Assembly: GCA_944390685.1 (NCBI GenBank)
Contig: CALXQL010000006.1
Coordinates: 24,108-88,107 of the forward strand
Reading direction: 5' to 3'
DNA: 64,000 nucleotides
Origin: an uncultured Alphaproteobacteria bacterium
GTDB taxonomy: Bacteria > Pseudomonadota > Alphaproteobacteria > Rs-D84 > CACZYB01
The notes under the pieces are model-generated. The model searched no databases. It had not been told where the DNA came from and saw nothing but the letters and a program-made list of their open reading frames with translations. The stretch's first letter is position 1, and each line of letters begins with the position of its first letter. This document shows positions 1 to 41,734 of the stretch, piece by piece. The position numbers were made by a program, and so were the translations under genes.

Positions 1-786
1 TTTTGGAAAAAAAAAGGTTATGATTTTGGGAAAAGGGTATTAAATAAATTTGATAAAGAATTTTTCATAAAATGTGTTAAAAATTTACCAAATGGACAAT
101 TATGGTTACGTCAGGGATGGATTTCCGATTGTTCTTTTTCTCAAGAATCTTGGAAACTAATAGCTGAAATTAGTTCGTTACTAAATTCTTTTAAAATTAG
201 ATTACTTATAATAACAAAGATTCACTATACTCCTAAAAAATCTACTTTGGTAGAACTGGCTAAAAATAATGTTGAAATTAGAGTGTCTTTGTCTGCTCTT
301 GATACTGAAAAAGAATATAAAAACAGATTAAAATTTTTAAATATGTATAGAGATTTAGGAGGATTATCTATACCTTATATAATGTCATCTAAATATAAAA
401 ATGAAGAATTGAATAAAAATCAACTAGTTTTGGTTAATTATGTTATTGAAAATGATTTTATAGCAGGGGAACATCCTCTGCGGTTTGATAAAGGGAATGA
501 AATAATTAAAGATTTAGAAGAATGTGGATTTTCACATACTAAATTTCCAAATCAATATTGGTTTGGTAGACTTTTTTATAATATTCCAAACTTTATTTTG
601 CCACCACCTACCCATTTGAAAGAAAATTATTTCTTACCTACTTGTTATTTCTCACATTTAGATATGGAACATAAAATTGTTGGGTTAGATGGAAATTTAC
701 CAACATTTGAACAATTATCGAAAGATTCAACTCAAAAAACGGAAGGCTTAATGAAACATGCAGAATATGTTATACAAAAATATTAA
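1..786 (+). CDS. Hypothetical protein, 5'-truncated by the window edge. The reading frame is open from position 1, and the ORF track reports only from the first Met at 247.
   Basis: Frame 1 has no stop between position 1 and the TAA at 784-786. No recognised catalytic motifs. Faint resemblance to TIM-barrel beta strands of radical-SAM/photolyase-like proteins (IRVSLSALD), not supportable without an HMM search. Confidence 0.4.
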   Translation, partial: FWKKKGYDFGKRVLNKFDKEFFIKCVKNLPNGQLWLRQGWISDCSFSQESWKLIAEISSLLNSFKIRLLIITKIHYTPKKSTLVELAKNNVEIRVSLSALDTEKEYKNRLKFLNMYRDLGGLSIPYIMSSKYKNEELNKNQLVLVNYVIENDFIAGEHPLRFDKGNEIIKDLEECGFSHTKFPNQYWFGRLFYNIPNFILPPPTHLKENYFLPTCYFSHLDMEHKIVGLDGNLPTFEQLSKDSTQKTEGLMKHAEYVIQKY

Positions 787-1438
787 CAAGCAATTTTTTA
801 ACAGGATTAATGATGCTTTTAATGCATTAAAAAAAGATGGATATTATATTTTTAATGCAGGTAATTTATCAAAAGAAGACTTCTTAAATTTTTCTTATAG
901 CTTTGGAGAAGTGATTCCATCAGGTAGAGGAAAGGAAATGGTAGATGATATTTTTATAGGAGGTATCCAAAAACAAAGTTCATTACCTCTACATACAGAC
1001 AAAAGTTATTGGCGATTACCTCCTAGTTTTGAAATACTGTATGTTAATGATGTTTATAATATGAAGCATGGAGAAATAATCGTTGGAAATTTATTGGAAG
1101 CATTTAAACAACTGTCACCTGTGGAACAAAAAGAATTACTTGATTTTGAAGCGGTATACAAATCTCCTCAAAATAGAGATGAAGGAACAATAAAAGTAAA
1201 GTTAATTGGAAAAATAGATGATGATATATCTTTTTTTAGGTATAGATTGGATATTTTTGATTCATCAAGTCCTACAATAACTAAATGGAATAATATAATA
1301 AAGGATAACTTAATTTTTGTTCCTTATAGAAAAGGAGATGTTCTCATTCTTGATAATAAATTACACTGTGCAGGAAGAAATAATACTACATGGGGAGAAA
1401 ATGGTTCAAGACATTTATATAGAACATTAGTTATGTAA
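758..1438 (+). CDS. TauD/TfdA-family Fe(II)/2-oxoglutarate dioxygenase-like protein
   Basis: 226 aa. Has LPLHTDKSYW (an HxD iron-binding motif) and a distal His in LHCAGRNNTTW, typical of the TauD/gamma-butyrobetaine hydroxylase fold. Overlaps the upstream ORF by 29 nt in another frame. Confidence 0.5.
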   Translation: MQNMLYKNINKQFFNRINDAFNALKKDGYYIFNAGNLSKEDFLNFSYSFGEVIPSGRGKEMVDDIFIGGIQKQSSLPLHTDKSYWRLPPSFEILYVNDVYNMKHGEIIVGNLLEAFKQLSPVEQKELLDFEAVYKSPQNRDEGTIKVKLIGKIDDDISFFRYRLDIFDSSSPTITKWNNIIKDNLIFVPYRKGDVLILDNKLHCAGRNNTTWGENGSRHLYRTLVM

Positions 1439-1478
1439 AACTATAAAATTATGTAAAACATACAATATATTCTTTCAA

Positions 1479-2330
1479 TTAATGTGTGTTTTGAAATGTT
1501 TTTATAATTGTGTCTTTTGTTATATTGTTTGAATTAAATTTACGAAGTTCTTGTCCACACAAAACAATTGGAAGTTTATTTTTTCTAGCAAAATTATAAA
1601 ATGGTTGTTCGAAAGGGTATCTTTTTTTTTGAATATCTAGTAATACTCCATGAGGATATAATTCTTCTAGAATAATTCCAACAATAGAATATGTTTTGAT
1701 TTGTTTTTGACAAAAATCTTTATCCGCATGAAAATCTACTACTGTGTTTATTAAATTTGCATAATACTGAATTTCTTTATTCATATCAGCAATATTTACA
1801 AATGAAGCTAAGTGTTCATTAATATATTCAAAACAACCAGGTGCTAATTTTGAAAGTCGAATTGTTTCCATTCCAGACATTTCTTCTATATAATCTTTAT
1901 TTTTGTCCCATGCTACATCATATATGGAAAATGGAAATGTTTCATCATAATCAGGTAATATACTAATATATTTAAATTCAACATTTTCTGCTGAAAAAAA
2001 TTCTTTAAGTTGTTCATTTAAAAATTGTACTTTCTTATATTGTGTTTTTTCTCTAAGTACATTAACATTCGATGTTAATGCATTACTATGCAAAGAAAAA
2101 AAAATTAAATCATTTTTTGATAATCCTAATAATAACGAATTTATGAAAGAAAAGTATGTTCTTTTGGAAAGAAATCCGAGTTCTTGTATAAAGGAAACCA
2201 TTCTATATAAAAACTTTATAAATGCATCTGTTTGGAATTTTTGTAAGTTTGTTAAACCTATCGACTTAAATAAATCTGGATTATGATGTTCGATATCAAA
2301 AATTATCTTTCTAATATATTTTTCTTCCAT
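1479..2330 (-). CDS. Hypothetical protein (283 aa), no recognisable domain
   Basis: Long ORF with the lysine/asparagine/isoleucine-rich composition typical of genes in this window. No signal peptide and no family motif identified. Confidence 0.45.
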   Translation of the reverse strand: MEEKYIRKIIFDIEHHNPDLFKSIGLTNLQKFQTDAFIKFLYRMVSFIQELGFLSKRTYFSFINSLLLGLSKNDLIFFSLHSNALTSNVNVLREKTQYKKVQFLNEQLKEFFSAENVEFKYISILPDYDETFPFSIYDVAWDKNKDYIEEMSGMETIRLSKLAPGCFEYINEHLASFVNIADMNKEIQYYANLINTVVDFHADKDFCQKQIKTYSIVGIILEELYPHGVLLDIQKKRYPFEQPFYNFARKNKLPIVLCGQELRKFNSNNITKDTIIKTFQNTH

Positions 2331-2444
2331 TTATAAATACCTAAAATATACCTAACGGTATAATAGTAATCTATTATTGTATTTTGTCAATATTTACTTG
2401 CAACTAATTACAATTTCATATATAATAGTATATATAGTTAGATT

Positions 2445-3125
2445 ATGAGGTATGCTATGCTGTTATTTTTATTAGGAGGAACTAATATTTCAAAAGAAGA
2501 AAAGAATAATTTAAATCCTCCTTTTTCTTCATTGGAATTTGATGTGGAATTTTTGAAACTTGTAAAAAAAAATAAACCAAATATTCTTTTATTACCTACT
2601 GCCAGTGAAATATTAGATAGAGAACATATTTATGAGAAGCGATTTATTAAACAATTTAAGGAATATTTAAATTGTAATGTGGATTCTTTATATTTATCCA
2701 AAATTCGTTCTACAATTAAAATTCAAAAAAAGTTAGATTGGGCAGATTGTTTTTATATATCAGGTGGGGATCCAATTCAACTATTGAATATTTGGAATGA
2801 ATCTAATTTTATAAAATTATTTAAAAAGCAAATACAAACTAAGCCAGTATATGCGGTTAGTGCTGGAGCAATGATTTTTTTTAAATATGCATTGAATGGA
2901 AATAATGAAAAAGCAACTATTAAAAAAAATGGATTAAATTTTATTTCTGGATTATGTGTTCCTCATTTTAATAGACAAGAGTTGCTTCCTTTGAAAAAAA
3001 AATTACTATCAGATAATAAATACAAAATATACGGAATAAATGATGGTGAAATTCTTTTACTAAATGAAAAAGGCTCAATATATTATAGAGATAAAGAATG
3101 GCATATTTCCTCGTTAGAAGAATAG
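2445..3125 (+). CDS. Peptidase S51 family (dipeptidase E / cyanophycinase-like)
   Basis: 226 aa. Has LLLPTAS near the N-terminus, ISGGDP (the GG(N/D) motif of S51 peptidases) and AVSAGAMIF (nucleophile-Ser region). Confidence 0.55.
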   Translation: MRYAMLLFLLGGTNISKEEKNNLNPPFSSLEFDVEFLKLVKKNKPNILLLPTASEILDREHIYEKRFIKQFKEYLNCNVDSLYLSKIRSTIKIQKKLDWADCFYISGGDPIQLLNIWNESNFIKLFKKQIQTKPVYAVSAGAMIFFKYALNGNNEKATIKKNGLNFISGLCVPHFNRQELLPLKKKLLSDNKYKIYGINDGEILLLNEKGSIYYRDKEWHISSLEE

Positions 3126-3802
3126 ATATTTCTAAAAAAGGAAACAATTTTAGACTACTAGATATACTCGTAAACCTTAACATAAGACAGGCTCTATCTT
3201 ACAGAAACGATAAAAAAATTCCATAATTGTAAGTTTGAAATTTATAGTAGCAAAATTAGAAGATATTCGAGTAATTAAGGACTTCAAACAATGGCAAGAA
3301 ACCTATAAAAAGATTGAATATTTCAAGAAAAACTATACGTAAAATCACCAGATAAATATAGCCTATCAAAATATAAAAAATAAACTCACCTAACTTTGTA
3401 ACCCTATGGGAACGAAGTGAAAAATTAATTCTTTAAGATTTTCCAATAACCACTATTATCTGGACCAACTCGTTTAATAAAGCCATTTTGTTAGTTTGTT
3501 AAGATTATACTTTATTCCATCAGGAGAAATACCTATCTTATCATATAACTATTGTCTTGTAATTTTAGGATTTTTAGTTAATAAGTCTAAAATTTTCTGG
3601 GTAGTGTTTTGCTTTTTTGGGGTAGTAGATTTTAAAAATAATTTAATCTGCATTTCTTCATTATTAAGAAGATTTTTCTTACCCAAAAGAATTAAACTTA
3701 AAATATACTAGTGTTAAAAATAAAAATTAACATAAAATATTACTTGAGTTATATCAAAATAAAAACGTATAATAAAAAATTATAACTAAAAGGGTTTATA
3801 AA

Positions 3803-5574
3803 ATGAAGTTATCAAAAATAAGAATAAAGAATTTTCGTGGTCACATTGATACAACTGTAAATATATCAAATTTAAATGTTATAATAGGACCAAATGATAT
3901 TGGAAAATCATCAATAATAGATGCTTTTGATATATATTTTAATGATTATCCAATAGATATTTCAGATGTAAACGTATTTATACCAGAAAATACGCCCAAA
4001 ATTGTTGAAATTTCTTGTTCTTTTATTGTTGATAAAAATGAGGCAGTTACACTAGACGCTAGTGAAAATACAGCAACATCTTTAGCTTCAGAATACTTAT
4101 TAAATAAAGATGGATTTCTTGAAATCTGTAAAAAATATGATTTTAGTACAAATAAAATAAAAAAAAGTATTCAGATTATAACAAAACACCCATCTAATTT
4201 TACACCTGCATTAATATTACAAAAAATAAACGATTTAAAAAAATTAGCTTCTGATAATAATATTACCCCAACTAATAATAATATAAAAAAAGACATAAGA
4301 AAAGCGATTTTTGAACAATATCCTAACTTAAATTGGGATAATGAATTTACTATTGAAGTAGAAGCAAAGGAAAACGATATTACACAAATTTTTAATAAAT
4401 TCAAAGACGATTTTCCAACATATATGGTTTTTCGTGCAGATAGAACAAATACAGATAAAGATAAAGATAAAGAAGTTAGTGAAACCACAAATGCAATTAC
4501 AAAAAGTGTTGTATCAGAACTAGAAAACGAATTTAATAATATAAAAAATAAAATAACAGATCAAATAAATACTTTAGCACAAAAAACACTCGAAAAACTA
4601 AAATTATTCGATGAAAATATATCAAATAGTTTAAAATCAAATATACAAACAAAACAACTATCCTCTTTATTTTCATTTACATTTGATTGTGATAATGGAA
4701 TTTCATTTAATAAAAGAGGAAGTGGTGTAAAAAGATTAATGTTATTAAGTTTTTTTCTTGCTGATGCAGAACAAAAAAATACAAACAAAACATTATATAC
4801 GCAATAGAAGAACCTGAAACATCACAACATCCAGATTATCAAATAATGTTAATAAATTCTTTAAAAGATTTATCAGATAAAAATAACAGACAAATAATAA
4901 TCACTACACATACTCCAGAAATAGTAAAAATTGTAAAAAAAGAAAATCTAATCTTTTTAAATAAAGATAGATCAAATATACTAAAGATACAACAAAATGA
5001 AACTTTAGAAATCAAAAAAATTGTTGATAATTTAGGAATTCTACCATATGTATCTTATAAAGAGGTAATATTTGTAGAAGGAAAAACTGATATAAGTTTT
5101 CTTAAAAATTTAAATCAATTTCAAGACTGTAAGAATATAATTGATATAACGCAATTTTCAATTATAGAATTAAATGGTTGTGCTAATGTTGATACATGGA
5201 TAAAAAATGACTATTTAGAAAATTCAAATATTAAACGTTTATATTTTCGAGATAGGAATAATAATAAAATAGAAACGGAAAATCAAAAAAACAATGTTAT
5301 AATAACAAAAAAAAGAGAAATAGAAAATTATATACCATATAATTTAATTGAAAACTACTTCAATATTGCTTTCACAAAAACAGAAAAAGAAAATTGGAAT
5401 GATATAGATGTTACTAAACATATACGAGGTAAAATAAATAACAAATACAAAAATGAAGATATAAAAAGAATATTAGAATCTCGAGATATATGGAATAATT
5501 TAAAATTACCAGATGATAGTATGAATGAAATAAAAGAATGGTTTAATAAAATAAAAAACTATTTTGATGACTAA
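3803..5574 (+). pseudogene. OLD-family ATP-dependent endonuclease (ABC-type ATPase plus C-terminal Toprim; class-1 OLD or fused PARIS AriAB-like), interrupted by a +1/-1 frameshift in an A7 tract
   Basis: N-terminus MKLSKIRIKNFRGHIDTTVNISNLNVIIGPNDIGKSSIIDAF is the OLD/AAA_15 Walker A. The ABC signature-like KRGSGVKRLMLLSFFLA lies before the break. Part 1 runs 3803..4807 in frame 2 and ends TLYTQ*. A different frame (frame 1) is open from 4765 after an in-frame TGA (4762-4764) and reads IIYAIEEPETSQHPDYQIM...QIIITTHTPE (Walker B and H-loop) up to the ATG at 4846 where the ORF track starts the second ORF. The second part also carries VIFVEGKTDISFLKNL, a Toprim motif. The reading frames swap at acaaaaaaatacaaacaaaa (4771..4790). 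Confidence 0.7.
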
Positions 5575-5798
5575 TTAATAGAATTTATAACGTATTGATT
5601 TTAAGAACTTCCTTTATAAATAAGAAAATAAAAATGAATACAGAAGAAGTAACAAATAAACTTATTAATTATATTCAACAAGCAAGAACATATCCATAAA
5701 AAAACAAATGATAAATCTATATTAGTAGCCAGATCTTTATATAGTGTAATTATTAGTCTAGCAAATAATGTTATATTTTGTATAAAAAACAACGAAAT

Positions 5799-6053
5799 TT
5801 ATTCTGCAAATGCTATAAATTGTAAATGCTTTTTATTCCAATGCCTACCAAGAATATTGCACTCTATCTGCTTCATTATTCGTTTCAGATTGTCTATTGA
5901 TGTGTATAAATTACTACTTTTTATATTCTCATGAAACTGTATTGTTAGCATATAGTTCGGCTTATATGTATCATCTATCCATTTCTTTAGCTCTTCCTTT
6001 ATTCTCATATTATTATGATATTGCTTCCATCTAGTTACCATACTTTCTATCAT
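5799..6053 (-). CDS. Short ORF (84 aa), possible N-terminal remnant of an HUH rolling-circle replication/relaxase-type protein
   Basis: MLTIQFHE resembles Rep motif I (uTuTu). About 40 aa downstream, KKHLQFIAF resembles motif II (an HuQ variant). The ORF stops before any motif III tyrosine. Weak, motif-level only. Confidence 0.3.
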   Translation of the reverse strand: MIESMVTRWKQYHNNMRIKEELKKWIDDTYKPNYMLTIQFHENIKSSNLYTSIDNLKRIMKQIECNILGRHWNKKHLQFIAFAE

Positions 6054-6421
6054 TCATATTATCATTATGCTTAATTGTGACTAGAATTATAACAAACAAA
6101 AATTTAAGGTTTTGCGTTATAAAAGTTATGACAGACTTTCTCCAAACAGAAAGATTTACAGCCTATGTATACAAAAAGTCCTATTATAATTTTCTAGAAC
6201 CGAACAATCTTCTAAAACTAATAACTATTTAACAAAGTACTAAAAAAACGGTTTTACTTAAGTTAGTAACCATATGGTAACGAACTCTATTATAAAAAAA
6301 GGCCCCCATTTAACGAGAGCCTTTTTAGTAAGTTTATCACTAAAAAATTAACAATTTAATACATTACAATGAAAATTTTCTAAATACAAAATATCCTTAC
6401 ATGTAAAAGGGCTTTTTTTAT

Positions 6422-6551
6422 AATTAATGCTTCTCACAAAAATATGAGGTCTTAGCTCTGGATCCACAACTCAGGTCCCCTGTCCCTCCCTAGAGGTAGG
6501 GGCTAGGTTGTTATACCAGTATCCAGGGCTCCCATCATAAAAGCATTAATT
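6422..6551. repeat. GC-rich palindromic structured element of about 130 bp (candidate small RNA, att-site remnant or MITE/RPE-like element)
   Basis: Perfect 11-bp inverted repeats aattaatgctt (6422..6432) and aagcattaatt (6541..6551) flank a GC-rich core (6446..6536), in sharp contrast to the AT-rich surroundings. The inner stem gctctggat (6455..6463) pairs with atccagggc (6521..6529) allowing one G-U pair. Further internal hairpins include CCCUA/UAGGG. Confidence 0.45.
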
Positions 6552-6588
6552 AAGAAAAATTTTCACTGTACAAATTAATAAGACTAAA

Positions 6589-6777
6589 ATGAAAAGTAGT
6601 TTTACAATTTTAGGTGAATATATACAATCTAAATATCCAGATAAAACACTCACAGATTATGAAACAGATGTAATGGTAAATAATATAGTTCAGTTTTTTA
6701 CCATAGGTGCAAAAATGGCTTATAACTATAAGAAAAACGGCGAAAATCTACAAAAAACTGCGTACAAATCAAAATAA
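6589..6777 (+). CDS. Short ORF (62 aa) of unknown function inside the degraded island
   Basis: ORF only. It lies immediately upstream of the recombinase fragments and may be another fragment. Confidence 0.25.
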   Translation: MKSSFTILGEYIQSKYPDKTLTDYETDVMVNNIVQFFTIGAKMAYNYKKNGENLQKTAYKSK

Positions 6778-6809
6778 TCCCTGTATAATATTAATATAAA
6801 GAATATGAA

Positions 6810-7632
6810 ATGATTAAATTTATAAAACAACAAAGAGGTAAAATACTTATTGTTGCTAATACAATTGATCGTATTCAAAGAAGATTTAAAGAATACAGTT
6901 TGTTAGATGATCTTCGTCGTGATAATAAAATTGAAATGTATTTTATAAGAGAACGTTTAACTATTAACTCTAAATCAAACGGTTATGAAATTGGTACATG
7001 GACTCAGGGTATTATGTGAGTTCAACAATATGTTATGCAATCAAGTGATAACATAAAAAGAGCAAATAACGAAAGCCGTGATAAAGGTAGATGGTTGCAT
7101 AAAGCCCTATTTGATACATTAATTATAAAGATTAATCAACTCTTGCAATGGTTAAGATAGATTCAATAAAAGGTTCTCTTTTTGCTCAAATGTTAGAGCA
7201 ATTGCTAACTATGCAAATAAAATAGGTCTTACAACTGGCTCTGGTAGAAAAATAACTAAAAAGAATGCAAATTATATGATACATAATACTTTCTATTATG
7301 GAGTAATGAGAACTATTGATGTATACAGAGCTCATACATGTGGTAATTTAATTACTAAAGAATTGTTTGATAAAATTCAAGAAGTAGCTTCAGGAAAATG
7401 CAAACCTTCATTTACAAAAAGAGCTGATACATTTATTTTTAGTGGACTATTAAGATGTGCTATATGTGGTTGTGCTATAACACCTGAAAGACATACTAAA
7501 AATAATGGAAAAACTTATACATACTTAAGATGCTTTCATTATGATCATAATTGTAAGCAACTATTATTGAATAAAAATGTCGTTTTACAACAAATAAAAG
7601 AAAAAATTTTTGATAAAAAAGAGAGATTTTAA
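6810..7632 (+). pseudogene. Serine recombinase (resolvase-type catalytic domain, recombinase domain and zinc beta-ribbon) broken into at least three frames
   Basis: 6810..7019 encodes GKILIVANTIDRIQRR (the DRLxR motif of the resolvase catalytic domain) and KIEMYFIRERLTINSKSNGYEIG. 7021..7275 in other frames gives ...GLTTGSGRKITKKNANYMIHNTFYYGVM (recombinase domain). 7276..7632 gives FSGLLRCAICGCAITPERH...YTYLRCFHYDHNC, the zinc beta-ribbon of large serine recombinases. In-frame stops lie between the pieces, and no intact N-terminal Ser nucleophile region was found. Confidence 0.65.
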
Positions 7633-7729
7633 AAATCATAAATTCGAACTCTTTGCTTGATGGAAAAAAGATAGTATTTTCAATAGCTAAGCATTTGATT
7701 TGATAATAAAAAATGATGAAAGTGTAAGA

Positions 7730-7806
7730 TGGTGGGTGATGAGAGACTCGAACTCCCGACCCTCTCGGTGTAAACGAGATGCTCTAGCCAACTGAGCTAA
7801 TCACCC
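7730..7806 (-). tRNA. tRNA-Val (anticodon TAC)
   Basis: Minus-strand sequence GGGTGATTAGCTCAGTTGGCTAGAGCATCTCGTTTACACCGAGAGGGTCGGGAGTTCGAGTCTCTCATCACCCACCA. 7-bp acceptor stem, D loop AGCTCAGTTGG, anticodon loop TTTACAC, T loop GGTTCGAGTC, CCA encoded. Confidence 0.9.
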
Positions 7807-7905
7807 GAAAGATGTTATTATTATATAACTCTTTTTTCTTTTTTCAAGTCTTTTTTCTTGTTTTTTACATTTTTTATTTTATAGTCTTATTTAGAGGTAT
7901 TTATT

Positions 7906-8136
7906 ATGAATAATGATGAACTTATAAAAAAGGCTAAATTACTTGGTTTAACAGATCAAGAAATTCAACAATTCATTGAAAATCAAGAAATTGCAAAAAA
8001 GTATGGGATAGATGATGATTGTTATTCTATAAATGTAGAAATAGATGAATCTATATTAAATGAAAATAATCATCATCATTGCGATTGTGATGATGATTGT
8101 TGTGGTGAGTGTTGCTCTGAGTCTCATAATAACTAA
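7906..8136 (+). CDS. Small protein (76 aa) with a helical N-terminal half and an extremely Cys/His/Asp-rich C-terminus (putative metal-binding)
   Basis: An agagg RBS lies 7 nt upstream of the ATG. The C-terminal 25 aa are NNHHHCDCDDDCCGECCSESHNN (6 Cys, 4 His). The gene is convergent with dut, and its stop abuts the dut stop. Confidence 0.55.
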   Translation: MNNDELIKKAKLLGLTDQEIQQFIENQEIAKKYGIDDDCYSINVEIDESILNENNHHHCDCDDDCCGECCSESHNN

Positions 8137-8604
8137 TTAATTTGTTCCACTACTTCCAAAACCTGAAATTCTATTAGCTTTAGGAAGTTCTGTTTCATCT
8201 TTTACTATTTCCATATCAAGTTGATATACTGGTTCAATTACACATTGCCCTATTCTCATACCTCTTTCTATTACTATTGGCTCATTTGAAAGGTTGATTA
8301 CTATCATGTGAACCTCTCCTCTATATTCATTATCAATAGTTCCTACCCCATTTGGCATAGAAAGGCCTTGTTTTAAAGAAAGTCCACTTCGTGATCTTAT
8401 TTGATAACCAAAACCATCTTCCAATGCCAATTTAAAACCAAGTGGAATAAGGCATCTTTCTTTTGGTAATATAGTAATAGAAGGTTCTTTAATACATGCC
8501 CTTACATCAAAACCAGTATCAGAAGGATAAGCATATTTCATCGGTCCCCAATTTTTTAAATCATAATTTTCAAGATATAATATTTTCCCTTTTACTTTTT
8601 GCAT
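8137..8604 (-). CDS. dut: dUTP diphosphatase (dUTPase)
   Basis: 155 aa with the canonical motifs GFDVRA, RSRSGL, GTIDNEYRGE and GFGSSG. Confidence 0.9.
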   Translation of the reverse strand: MQKVKGKILYLENYDLKNWGPMKYAYPSDTGFDVRACIKEPSITILPKERCLIPLGFKLALEDGFGYQIRSRSGLSLKQGLSMPNGVGTIDNEYRGEVHMIVINLSNEPIVIERGMRIGQCVIEPVYQLDMEIVKDETELPKANRISGFGSSGTN

Positions 8605-40855: not shown

Positions 40856-40948
40856 AAAAAATTTATGGGGAAAGTCATATTGTCCGATTACCTTCACTTT
40901 CCCCTCCCTATTTTACATTATGTGAACGAACAAAGAAAGGAGAAAAAT

Positions 40949-41734
40949 ATGAAATTAAATAAAAAACTGCTCATGCTTGGGTTGGGGATTACAGCCTCAA
41001 CGGGAGCATTAGCACAAACATTTTATCAATGTTTGCCGTGTACTGCTGGAACTTATTCCAGTAGTGGTAAGTGTATTAATTGTCCGGCTGGAAAATATCA
41101 AAATTTAACAGGGCAATTAAGTTGTAAGGCATGTCCGGCGGGAAGTTATTGTCCGGCGGGAAGTGTTGAACCGAAACCTTGTTTACCAGGACAATATCAA
41201 GATGCAACAGGGCAAGGAAGTTGTAAATCATGTCCGGCTGGACAAGTATCAAATAGTGGAGCAACATTTTGTAGGACATTTGGAAGTGGTGGAACATTGA
41301 TAGGAGTAAGTGGAGGAAGAGGAACATTGGCACCAGGAGCATATAGAGTTGAACTTTCTGGTGGTAAAGGTGGAAAAGGACAAGATAATTGGTGTTATGC
41401 AACAAATTGTAATGGTTGTTATGGTGGAAATGGTTATACAAATTCAAAAGTATTTGTAGTTACAAAAGATACAAATTATACATATTCTATTGGAAGTATT
41501 GGAGCAAATGGAAGTGGGGGACCTAGTAGTTGTAATAATAGAACACAAACACCAGGTAAACAAGGCGGAACAACCACATTTACACTTAGTGGAGTATTTA
41601 GTATATCCGCCCAAGGAGGACCTGGTGGACCAGGAGGTAGAACAGTTAATTTAGGTTGTGGTGGTGGATGTTCAAATGCTGTAGGTGGTAATGGTAGTAA
41701 TGGCAATGGTTGGCTTAAAATTTATAAAATGTAG
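40949..41734 (+). CDS. Secreted protein with eukaryote-like Cys-rich repeats (GCC2/GCC3- or TNFR/furin-like CxxCPAGxY) and a C-terminal glycine-rich domain
   Basis: Signal peptide MKLNKKLLMLGLGITASTGALAQ. Repeats CLPCTAGTYSSSGKCINCPAGKYQ, CKACPAGSYCPAGS and CKSCPAGQVS. Then GAYRVELSGGKGGKG...GGNGYTN...GGPGGPGG, which resembles the Gly-rich domain family. Start moved to the Met at 40949. Confidence 0.6.
   Translation: MKLNKKLLMLGLGITASTGALAQTFYQCLPCTAGTYSSSGKCINCPAGKYQNLTGQLSCKACPAGSYCPAGSVEPKPCLPGQYQDATGQGSCKSCPAGQVSNSGATFCRTFGSGGTLIGVSGGRGTLAPGAYRVELSGGKGGKGQDNWCYATNCNGCYGGNGYTNSKVFVVTKDTNYTYSIGSIGANGSGGPSSCNNRTQTPGKQGGTTTFTLSGVFSISAQGGPGGPGGRTVNLGCGGGCSNAVGGNGSNGNGWLKIYKM

Follow-up and report, generated by a model that had tools for sequence, protein, structure and literature searches.

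A lineage-restricted family of small proteins with a conserved helical head and an acidic, Cys- and His-rich tail in uncultured Alphaproteobacteria

Introduction

It is well established that small proteins or domains can carry a metal-binding tail rich in Cys and His. In SlyD, a C-terminus with many His and Cys residues binds Ni2+ and Zn2+ (PMC3292732). Hpn and Hpn-2 from gastric Helicobacter are small, lineage-restricted, Ni-binding proteins that act as a store or buffer for nickel (PMC4671568). In a recently described thioredoxin-metallothionein chimera (bacterial TrxA), a folded domain is fused to a metallothionein module (PMC13578184).

We analyzed a small open reading frame (ORF) that encodes a conserved helical head followed by an acidic tail rich in Cys and His, and this head-plus-tail combination is new. 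The ORF lies in a 64,000-nucleotide stretch of DNA, called the window here at its full length. Its tail is a predicted disordered terminal segment of His, Cys, Asp, and Glu of the kind that marks SlyD, HspA, and Hpn-type proteins, and it also has the composition by which metallothioneins are recognized, with high Cys in CxC, CC, or CxxC motifs and few aromatic residues.

Results

Position and local signals of the small gene

A 76-aa protein (full translation MNNDELIKKAKLLGLTDQEIQQFIENQEIAKKYGIDDDCYSINVEIDESILNENNHHHCDCDDDCCGECCSESHNN) is encoded on the plus strand at 7906..8136, stop codon included, in a frame from the ORF list that starts with ATG. Its position between tRNA-Val and dut and its sequence are exactly those given in the first-pass annotation, which had also credited it with a good ribosome-binding site. 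That site is present as a Shine-Dalgarno-like AGAGG, read from the sequence on the plus strand at 7893..7897, 8 nt 5' of the ATG, and homologues carry AAGG, GGAG, or GAGG at equal spacing from the start. A putative sigma-70-type promoter of the small gene was likewise read from the sequence at 7858..7885 (plus strand), with TTGTTT at 7858-7863, a 16-nt spacer, and TATAGT at 7880-7885; the -35 hexamer TTGTTT is too weak to reach the threshold of the promoter tool. The equivalent upstream site in five other species has TTGATT followed after 16–17 nt by TAAAAT, TATCAT, or TAGAAT. A promoter-like element 20–45 nt before the start thus has a position shared by six species, and this conserved placement suggests that the small gene would be transcribed alone, from its predicted promoter and divergently from tRNA-Val. 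The tRNA has a strong promoter of its own on the opposite strand (TTGAAA-16-TATAAT).

The divergent upstream neighbor, tRNA-Val (anticodon TAC; 7730..7806, minus strand), was identified with ARAGORN, scores 67.3 bits against the Rfam tRNA model, is the sole Rfam match near the 76-aa ORF, and provides a synteny anchor. The convergent downstream neighbor is dut (dUTPase; 8137..8604, minus strand; Pfam dUTPase E = 1.8e-19). The stop codons of the small gene and dut abut at 8134-8139 (TAA directly followed by TTA) with 0 intergenic bases, and no terminator is predicted between the two genes, so each transcript would end inside the other gene or run antisense through it. The spacing between the small gene and dut in most homologous loci ranges from an 8-bp overlap to a 27-bp gap. 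The window has a GC content of 28% and is full of spurious ORFs of 60–150 codons; ORF length alone is therefore not evidence of a gene.

Extent and conservation of the family

The protein had been labeled an orphan in the first-pass annotation, a label that is no longer tenable given the existence of 35 homologous clusters. A single-sequence word-index search returned solely the identical protein, on 12 metagenome contigs. An exhaustive phmmer search of 1.84 billion representatives yielded six true relatives, and the profile that was built from them recovered 36 clusters of 60–114 aa, including the window protein. A profile search with the N-terminal domain alone added zero members. Pattern scans of genome contigs and of metagenome contigs each found at least one locus. 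A scan of viral contigs found no relatives, and there is thus no sign of a phage origin. All family clusters come from metagenomes or metagenome-assembled genomes (MAGs) and are labeled only "Alphaproteobacteria bacterium" or "bacterium". No significant family emerged when Pfam, NCBIfam, and PDB sequences were searched with the protein, with the family profile, or with tails in isolation; a "hit" to succinyl-CoA ligase was rejected as a His-tag artifact. What appeared to be an orphan is now a defined family of about 36 clusters for which Pfam and NCBIfam have no model, an undescribed small-protein family confined to an uncultured, AT-rich lineage of Alphaproteobacteria.

Comparisons among and within species indicate that the 76-codon ORF is a genuine conserved gene, and one that is presumably expressed. 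The N-terminal domain (residues 1-50) of homologues has 52–60% identity to the window protein, and the dUTPases of those genomes have 55–75%, a similarly slow divergence. Values of dN/dS for codons 1-50 range from 0.05 to 0.65 (Nei-Gojobori; 25 of 28 pairs computable, with the other three saturated and synonymous sites near saturation overall). Within the species, the window and ten contigs with the identical protein represent three DNA haplotypes that differ at four variable sites. All four polymorphisms are synonymous third positions and three of them lie inside the tail, a synonymous-only result that is biased by the choice of contigs for their identical protein. No near-identical variant protein was found in the database. 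The reading frame is preserved through the repeat-prone tail. Two checks had been proposed in the first-pass annotation, one asking whether relatives lack the ORF or carry it in disrupted form and one for conservation and dN/dS; the former came out in favor of a real gene, and the latter found conservation, with dN/dS below 1 in every computable pair.

Gene order around the homologues

The order tRNA-Val(tac) (minus strand), small gene (plus strand), an optional extra gene, and dut (minus strand) was observed in eight of nine distinct contexts. tRNA-Val is upstream of the homologue in L001, L006, L011, L012, L014, L015, L018, and L020. In the remaining context, L016, the small gene adjoins dut, and tRNA-Val is found elsewhere, beside a serine recombinase. 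The dut gene is adjacent to the homologue, or one gene away from it, in all nine contexts. It is a synteny partner; the neighborhood reflects common descent within one lineage and gives no evidence that the genes work together.

The extra gene occurs between the small gene and dut in three of the nine contexts (L011 8297-9694, L012 8536-9819, and L020 5274-6590). Its product has 427–465 aa, no assigned function, and an invariant SHCHG(S/T)FVACEL motif. The single Pfam match for this protein is faint (LANC_like, E = 0.048, 12.7 bits vs a cutoff of 23.2 bits) and was not reproduced in PDB and NCBIfam searches. The gene is not present in the 64-kb window, and the LanC-like lead was dropped on both grounds.

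Genes for metal homeostasis (regulators, transporters, or Ni/Zn enzymes) do not occur consistently near the small gene; a CorA gene is upstream of it in L018 only. Genes for metalloenzyme maturation (urease, [NiFe] hydrogenase, and others) were seen neither in the window nor in the homologue contexts. Inspection of the upstream alignment by eye revealed no operator for a metal regulator.

Strain-variable DNA and other features of the window

The first 7,729 nucleotides of the window (1-7729) are strain-variable DNA whose insertion point coincides exactly with the tRNA-Val(tac) 3' end, with the junction at 7730. L001-type strains of the same species have lexA-recA-tRNA-Val at this place, and their match to the window (99.55%) does not begin until 7730. 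The small gene is on the 5' side of tRNA-Val and outside the inserted island. Beside tRNA-Val is what remains of a large serine recombinase (118 aa, 7276-7632, Zn_ribbon_recom). A similar recombinase remnant is found at the equivalent tRNA end in another species (L015), and in L016 an intact 523-aa serine recombinase adjoins tRNA-Val. No second copy of the tRNA-Val 3' end (att repeat) was found in the window, and the far end of the island lies beyond it. The inserted DNA also carries an OLD-family, defense-type nuclease that appears to be split into two adjacent ORFs (3803-4807 and 4846-5574). The first contains the AAA_15 ATPase part (E = 3e-37), and the second, of 242 aa, contains the end of AAA_15 and an OLD-like TOPRIM domain; the pair could represent either a pseudogene broken by a frameshift or a true arrangement of two genes.

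One contig, L006 (524-3418), has an identical small gene and tRNA-Val and departs from the window inside dut (8137-8215) after about 26 codons. Past this break, it continues in frame as a 964-aa SNF2/SWIM helicase and then with genes for a four-subunit PFOR, and the sequence upstream of the tRNA also differs. Either the DNA was truly rearranged or the contig is a chimera of the assembly.

Downstream of dut, at 8707-10334 and 10872-11534, are three consecutive lineage-specific genes (137, 399, and 220 aa) whose products match no Pfam family and begin with signal-peptide-like sequences. A Thr/Glu-rich, low-complexity stretch is present in the 399-aa protein, and the closest relatives (L012, L017, and L018) retain the trio downstream of dut. 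A 979-aa ORF at 24854-27793 matches Mur_ligase, Mur_ligase_M, and Mur_ligase_C twice each and is apparently a fusion of two peptidoglycan-precursor ligases. At 40865-41734 is a 289-aa protein with Ephrin_rec_like/TNFR-like Cys-rich repeats (E = 6e-13), a eukaryote-type extracellular module, and the L016 relative encodes an ankyrin-repeat protein. These two proteins together are hints of a host-associated lifestyle.

The conserved head

The conserved N-terminal domain comprises residues 1-50 (7906..8055, plus strand) and was delimited with alignments A2 and A3, AlphaFold2, Pfam SinI, and hhalign. The N-terminal half had been described as helical in the first-pass annotation, and AlphaFold2 bears this out, with helices predicted at residues 3-12 and 17-32 at pLDDT values of 85–95. 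The helices are separated by a turn and followed by a conserved KYG(F/I)..(S)(I)NV.ID segment. Residues K9, A10, G14, E19, I20, F23, A30, Y33, I46, and D47 are invariant in A2 and A3, and the consensus from A2 is MxxEEIIKKAKELGLSEEEIxxFIENQxIAxKYGFxDEYSSINVKIDK.

The 28-residue Pfam SinI model (PF08671) matched 33 of the 36 members at E <= 0.1, with a best value of 2.4e-6 and all scores below the gathering score. The window protein itself has 16.6 bits (E = 0.007), below the gathering threshold of 31.4 bits. Comparison of the family with Bacillus subtilis SinI using hhalign gave a probability of 64% over 22 columns. The head motif also matches the carbamoyl-phosphate synthetase oligomerization domain in 20 members. 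From these matches, the head would be a generic helix-GLS-helix hairpin for oligomerization or interaction that works like the one in SinI; membership in SinI is not established. The island-free L001 strain encodes two HTH_3 (Xre-type) proteins 2–3 kb upstream, neither of which has a matching hairpin (hhalign probability < 1%). A SinR-like partner among these neighboring HTH proteins was rejected, as they did not match the family profile. The head is retained in members that have no tail, and it therefore has a function of its own.

The acidic Cys/His tail

A short polar linker (A2) joins the head to an acidic tail that comprises residues 52-76 (8059..8133, plus strand; NENNHHHCDCDDDCCGECCSESHNN) and is putatively metal-chelating, as judged from its composition, and disordered, as judged from pLDDT values below 50 (AlphaFold2, residues 55-76). 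The first-pass annotation had counted six Cys and four His in the final 25 residues, and the count was confirmed. Among the 18,502 residues that the window encodes, 1.13% are Cys and 1.25% are His. Relative to this proteome, the probability of at least six Cys in 25 residues is 3e-7, and that of at least ten Cys plus His is 1.4e-10; other window proteins have at most five Cys plus His in any 25-residue stretch. The six Cys residues (24% of the tail) occur in CDC, CC, and CC motifs, and the tail has zero aromatic residues.

A tail of this type is present in 33 of the 36 members, with 6–13 Cys, 3–9 His, 7–25 Asp/Glu, and hardly any hydrophobic residue, and it frequently ends in CCCHHHH(N/E). The window protein has the shortest Cys-bearing tail of the family. 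Three close relatives (P0003, P0009, and P0010) have CE or CD dipeptide indels, and a tandem-repeat finder detected no array in the tail DNA. The tail drifts by indels of short units and stays within a frame of Cys, Asp, Glu, and His. Composition is thus kept and sequence and length are not, as would be expected if selection acted on ligand content rather than on a fold. For three representative tails, Pfam searches at E <= 10 and PDB sequence searches gave no match. The tail is likewise unmatched by metallothionein, SlyD, and Hpn models, and its resemblance to those proteins is compositional only.

Three members, P0002 (L017), P0004 (L016), and P0033, retain the head but are devoid of a Cys tail. 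The dut gene lies 0–15 bp beyond the small gene in L016 and L017, so the tail is truly absent there and not frameshifted. Since three of the 36 members have no tail, metal binding would not be the only or the essential function of the family.

Discussion

On balance, and with moderate confidence, we think that the family probably consists of cytoplasmic, metallochaperone-like proteins for metal buffering, storage, or delivery, by analogy with the described systems. The first-pass annotation had offered two roles, a metal-binding or metallochaperone-like protein and a precursor of a ribosomally synthesized and post-translationally modified peptide (RiPP). The former is favored by a tail composition conserved in 33 of 36 members and by predicted disorder, and the latter is unsupported. 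The small gene would be transcribed separately and encode a two-part protein of the cytoplasm. Its N-terminus is hydrophilic, and no signal peptide is apparent in the sequence, so the thiols of the tail should be reduced. The head, a hairpin of the xxLIxKAKELGLSxEEIxxFI type with its KYGF...SINVKIDK segment, would be the conserved functional core and probably mediates self-association or binding of a partner. Thiolate, imidazole, and carboxylate ligands of the tail most likely coordinate divalent or soft metal ions (Zn, Ni, Co, Cu(I), or Cd) in the reducing cytoplasm, and the protein may in this way buffer metal, store it, or deliver it. The tail evolves as short Cys-X units are gained and lost, and some species dispense with it; it therefore looks like an accessory module that would add capacity to the conserved head.

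A plausible alternative, though on our assessment an unlikely one, is a SinI-like regulatory adaptor, a sensor or anti-repressor rather than a buffer. Its hairpin would heterodimerize with a transcription factor or other partner, and the tail would add a response to metal or redox state. Sub-threshold similarity to SinI in 33 of 36 members, the hhalign probability, and a promoter-like element belonging to the small gene are consistent with such an adaptor, as is the persistence of the conserved head without the tail, since the function of the head is then not metal storage as such. Against these points, no member reaches the Pfam SinI threshold, the Xre-type HTH proteins of the island-free strain have no matching hairpin, none of the nine contexts has a conserved regulator beside the small gene, and the motif is generic enough to match the carbamoyl-phosphate synthetase domain as well. 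The adaptor and the metal buffer are inseparable on present data.

A further proposal, which we regard as speculative and quite unlikely, is a new kind of switch protein, in which a SinI-like hairpin would titrate a partner protein, for instance an enzyme or regulator, and the level of metal or oxidant that triggers the switch would be set by an evolvable tail resembling metallothionein. In a less probable version of this proposal, the protein would be the substrate of a Cys maturase encoded in trans and would represent a new RiPP class with an unusually long conserved leader.

As a RiPP precursor in the ordinary sense, the protein would consist of a 50-residue leader and a core rich in Cys, Asp, and Glu, with the maturase encoded elsewhere and modifications such as ranthipeptide-like Cys-Asp/Glu thioethers or other thiol chemistry. 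A conserved head with a variable Cys-rich C-terminus is suggestive of this organization, and Cys beside Asp or Glu recalls the substrates of radical-SAM thioether enzymes. The 427–465-aa neighbor in three of nine contexts, with its faint LANC_like match, points in the same direction, but that match is below the cutoff and unreproduced, and the gene is missing from the window. The likeness of the N-terminal half to Nif11/NHLP-type leaders, proposed in the first-pass annotation, did not survive: the window protein has no such family in Pfam (E <= 1) or NCBIfam (E <= 10), Nif11 and NHLP are absent from the top families of the 36 members, and no other precursor model matches. A Gly-Gly-type cleavage site is missing, with no GG, GA, or GS motif between the head and the Cys-rich tail in alignment A2. 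The same annotation had remarked on a lack of neighboring maturases, and this is the case. A Pfam scan of essentially all window ORFs of at least 100 aa found housekeeping genes only, and radical-SAM, LanB/C/M, YcaO, MbnB, and peptidase-ABC exporter genes were all unseen in the 64-kb window; no maturase or exporter gene was found beside any homologue in the nine contexts. The tail is nearly devoid of Ser and Thr for dehydration and lanthionine chemistry, its CCCHHHH end is conserved like a ligand set and is not hypervariable, and a leader peptide would be pointless in the tail-less members that keep it. We consider a RiPP precursor very unlikely.

Less probable still is a tail that works without metal, as a polyanionic or thiol-rich mimic of DNA or another nucleic acid, a redox buffer, or a chaperone-like solubility tail, with Cys and His secondary. 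The 7–25 acidic residues and the predicted disorder would suit this role, and genes of DNA metabolism are nearby (dut, HU, and rmuC, with recA and lexA upstream in L001). Acidity alone, however, fails to explain the 6–13 Cys, the 3–9 His, and the CCCHHHH terminus; the neighborhood reflects shared ancestry; and known DNA mimics are not Cys-rich. A chance ORF, or one from which no protein is expressed, could be suspected among the many spurious ORFs of this AT-rich window, but comparative data effectively exclude it, given a protein conserved in 36 or more clusters at dN/dS values well under 1, synonymous-only variation within the species, a frame kept through the tail, and conserved synteny, ribosome-binding site, and promoter.

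The family overturns no established view. The practical gain is modest: small ORFs in MAGs could be annotated more accurately, and the tail is a natural and compact candidate for a metal-binding tag of Cys, His, and acidic residues.

Comparison with known systems

The family has partial likenesses to several described groups of proteins. It shares with Nif11/NHLP leaders and with SCIFF/ranthipeptide precursors a small size, N-terminal conservation, and a C-terminus rich in Cys. It differs from them in that it has no model match, cleavage motif, or adjacent maturase or exporter, and in that tail-less orthologues exist. The hairpin of the SinI/SinR family (PF08671) has a helix-turn-helix motif of the same form, ...L(I/V)xxAKxxG(L/I)SxEEIxxF(L/I)..., as the head described here. 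SinI, however, is from Bacillota and has neither the KYGF..SINVKIDK segment nor a Cys/His tail, and no SinR-like partner was found for the family.

The closer likenesses are to metal-binding proteins. SlyD and Helicobacter HspA (GroES) have the same plan of a folded domain followed by a disordered tail of His, Cys pairs, and Asp/Glu, in a similar style of CC pairs and His runs. The head of the family differs from theirs, being a helical module of 50 residues with no relation to FKBP or GroES, and the family's tail is richer in Cys and acidic residues, with metal binding predicted here from composition. Hpn and Hpn-2 are likewise small, lineage-restricted, cytoplasmic proteins made up largely of metal-ligand residues. 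Unlike the family, Hpn is mostly His (and Gln) with few Cys and no conserved folded head, and the two have no sequence similarity. Metallothioneins are resembled in the CxC and CC motifs of the tail, its roughly 24% Cys, and the near absence of aromatic and hydrophobic residues. They differ in that no Pfam model matches the tail, which is strongly acidic and His-rich and, in the window protein, short, with six Cys. If the tail binds metal, as the preferred reading of a metal buffer, store, or delivery protein would have it, the family would add a new head-plus-tail architecture to the few bacterial cytoplasmic metal buffers, one in which ligand capacity would be tuned, and even lost, by slippage-type Cys-X indels.
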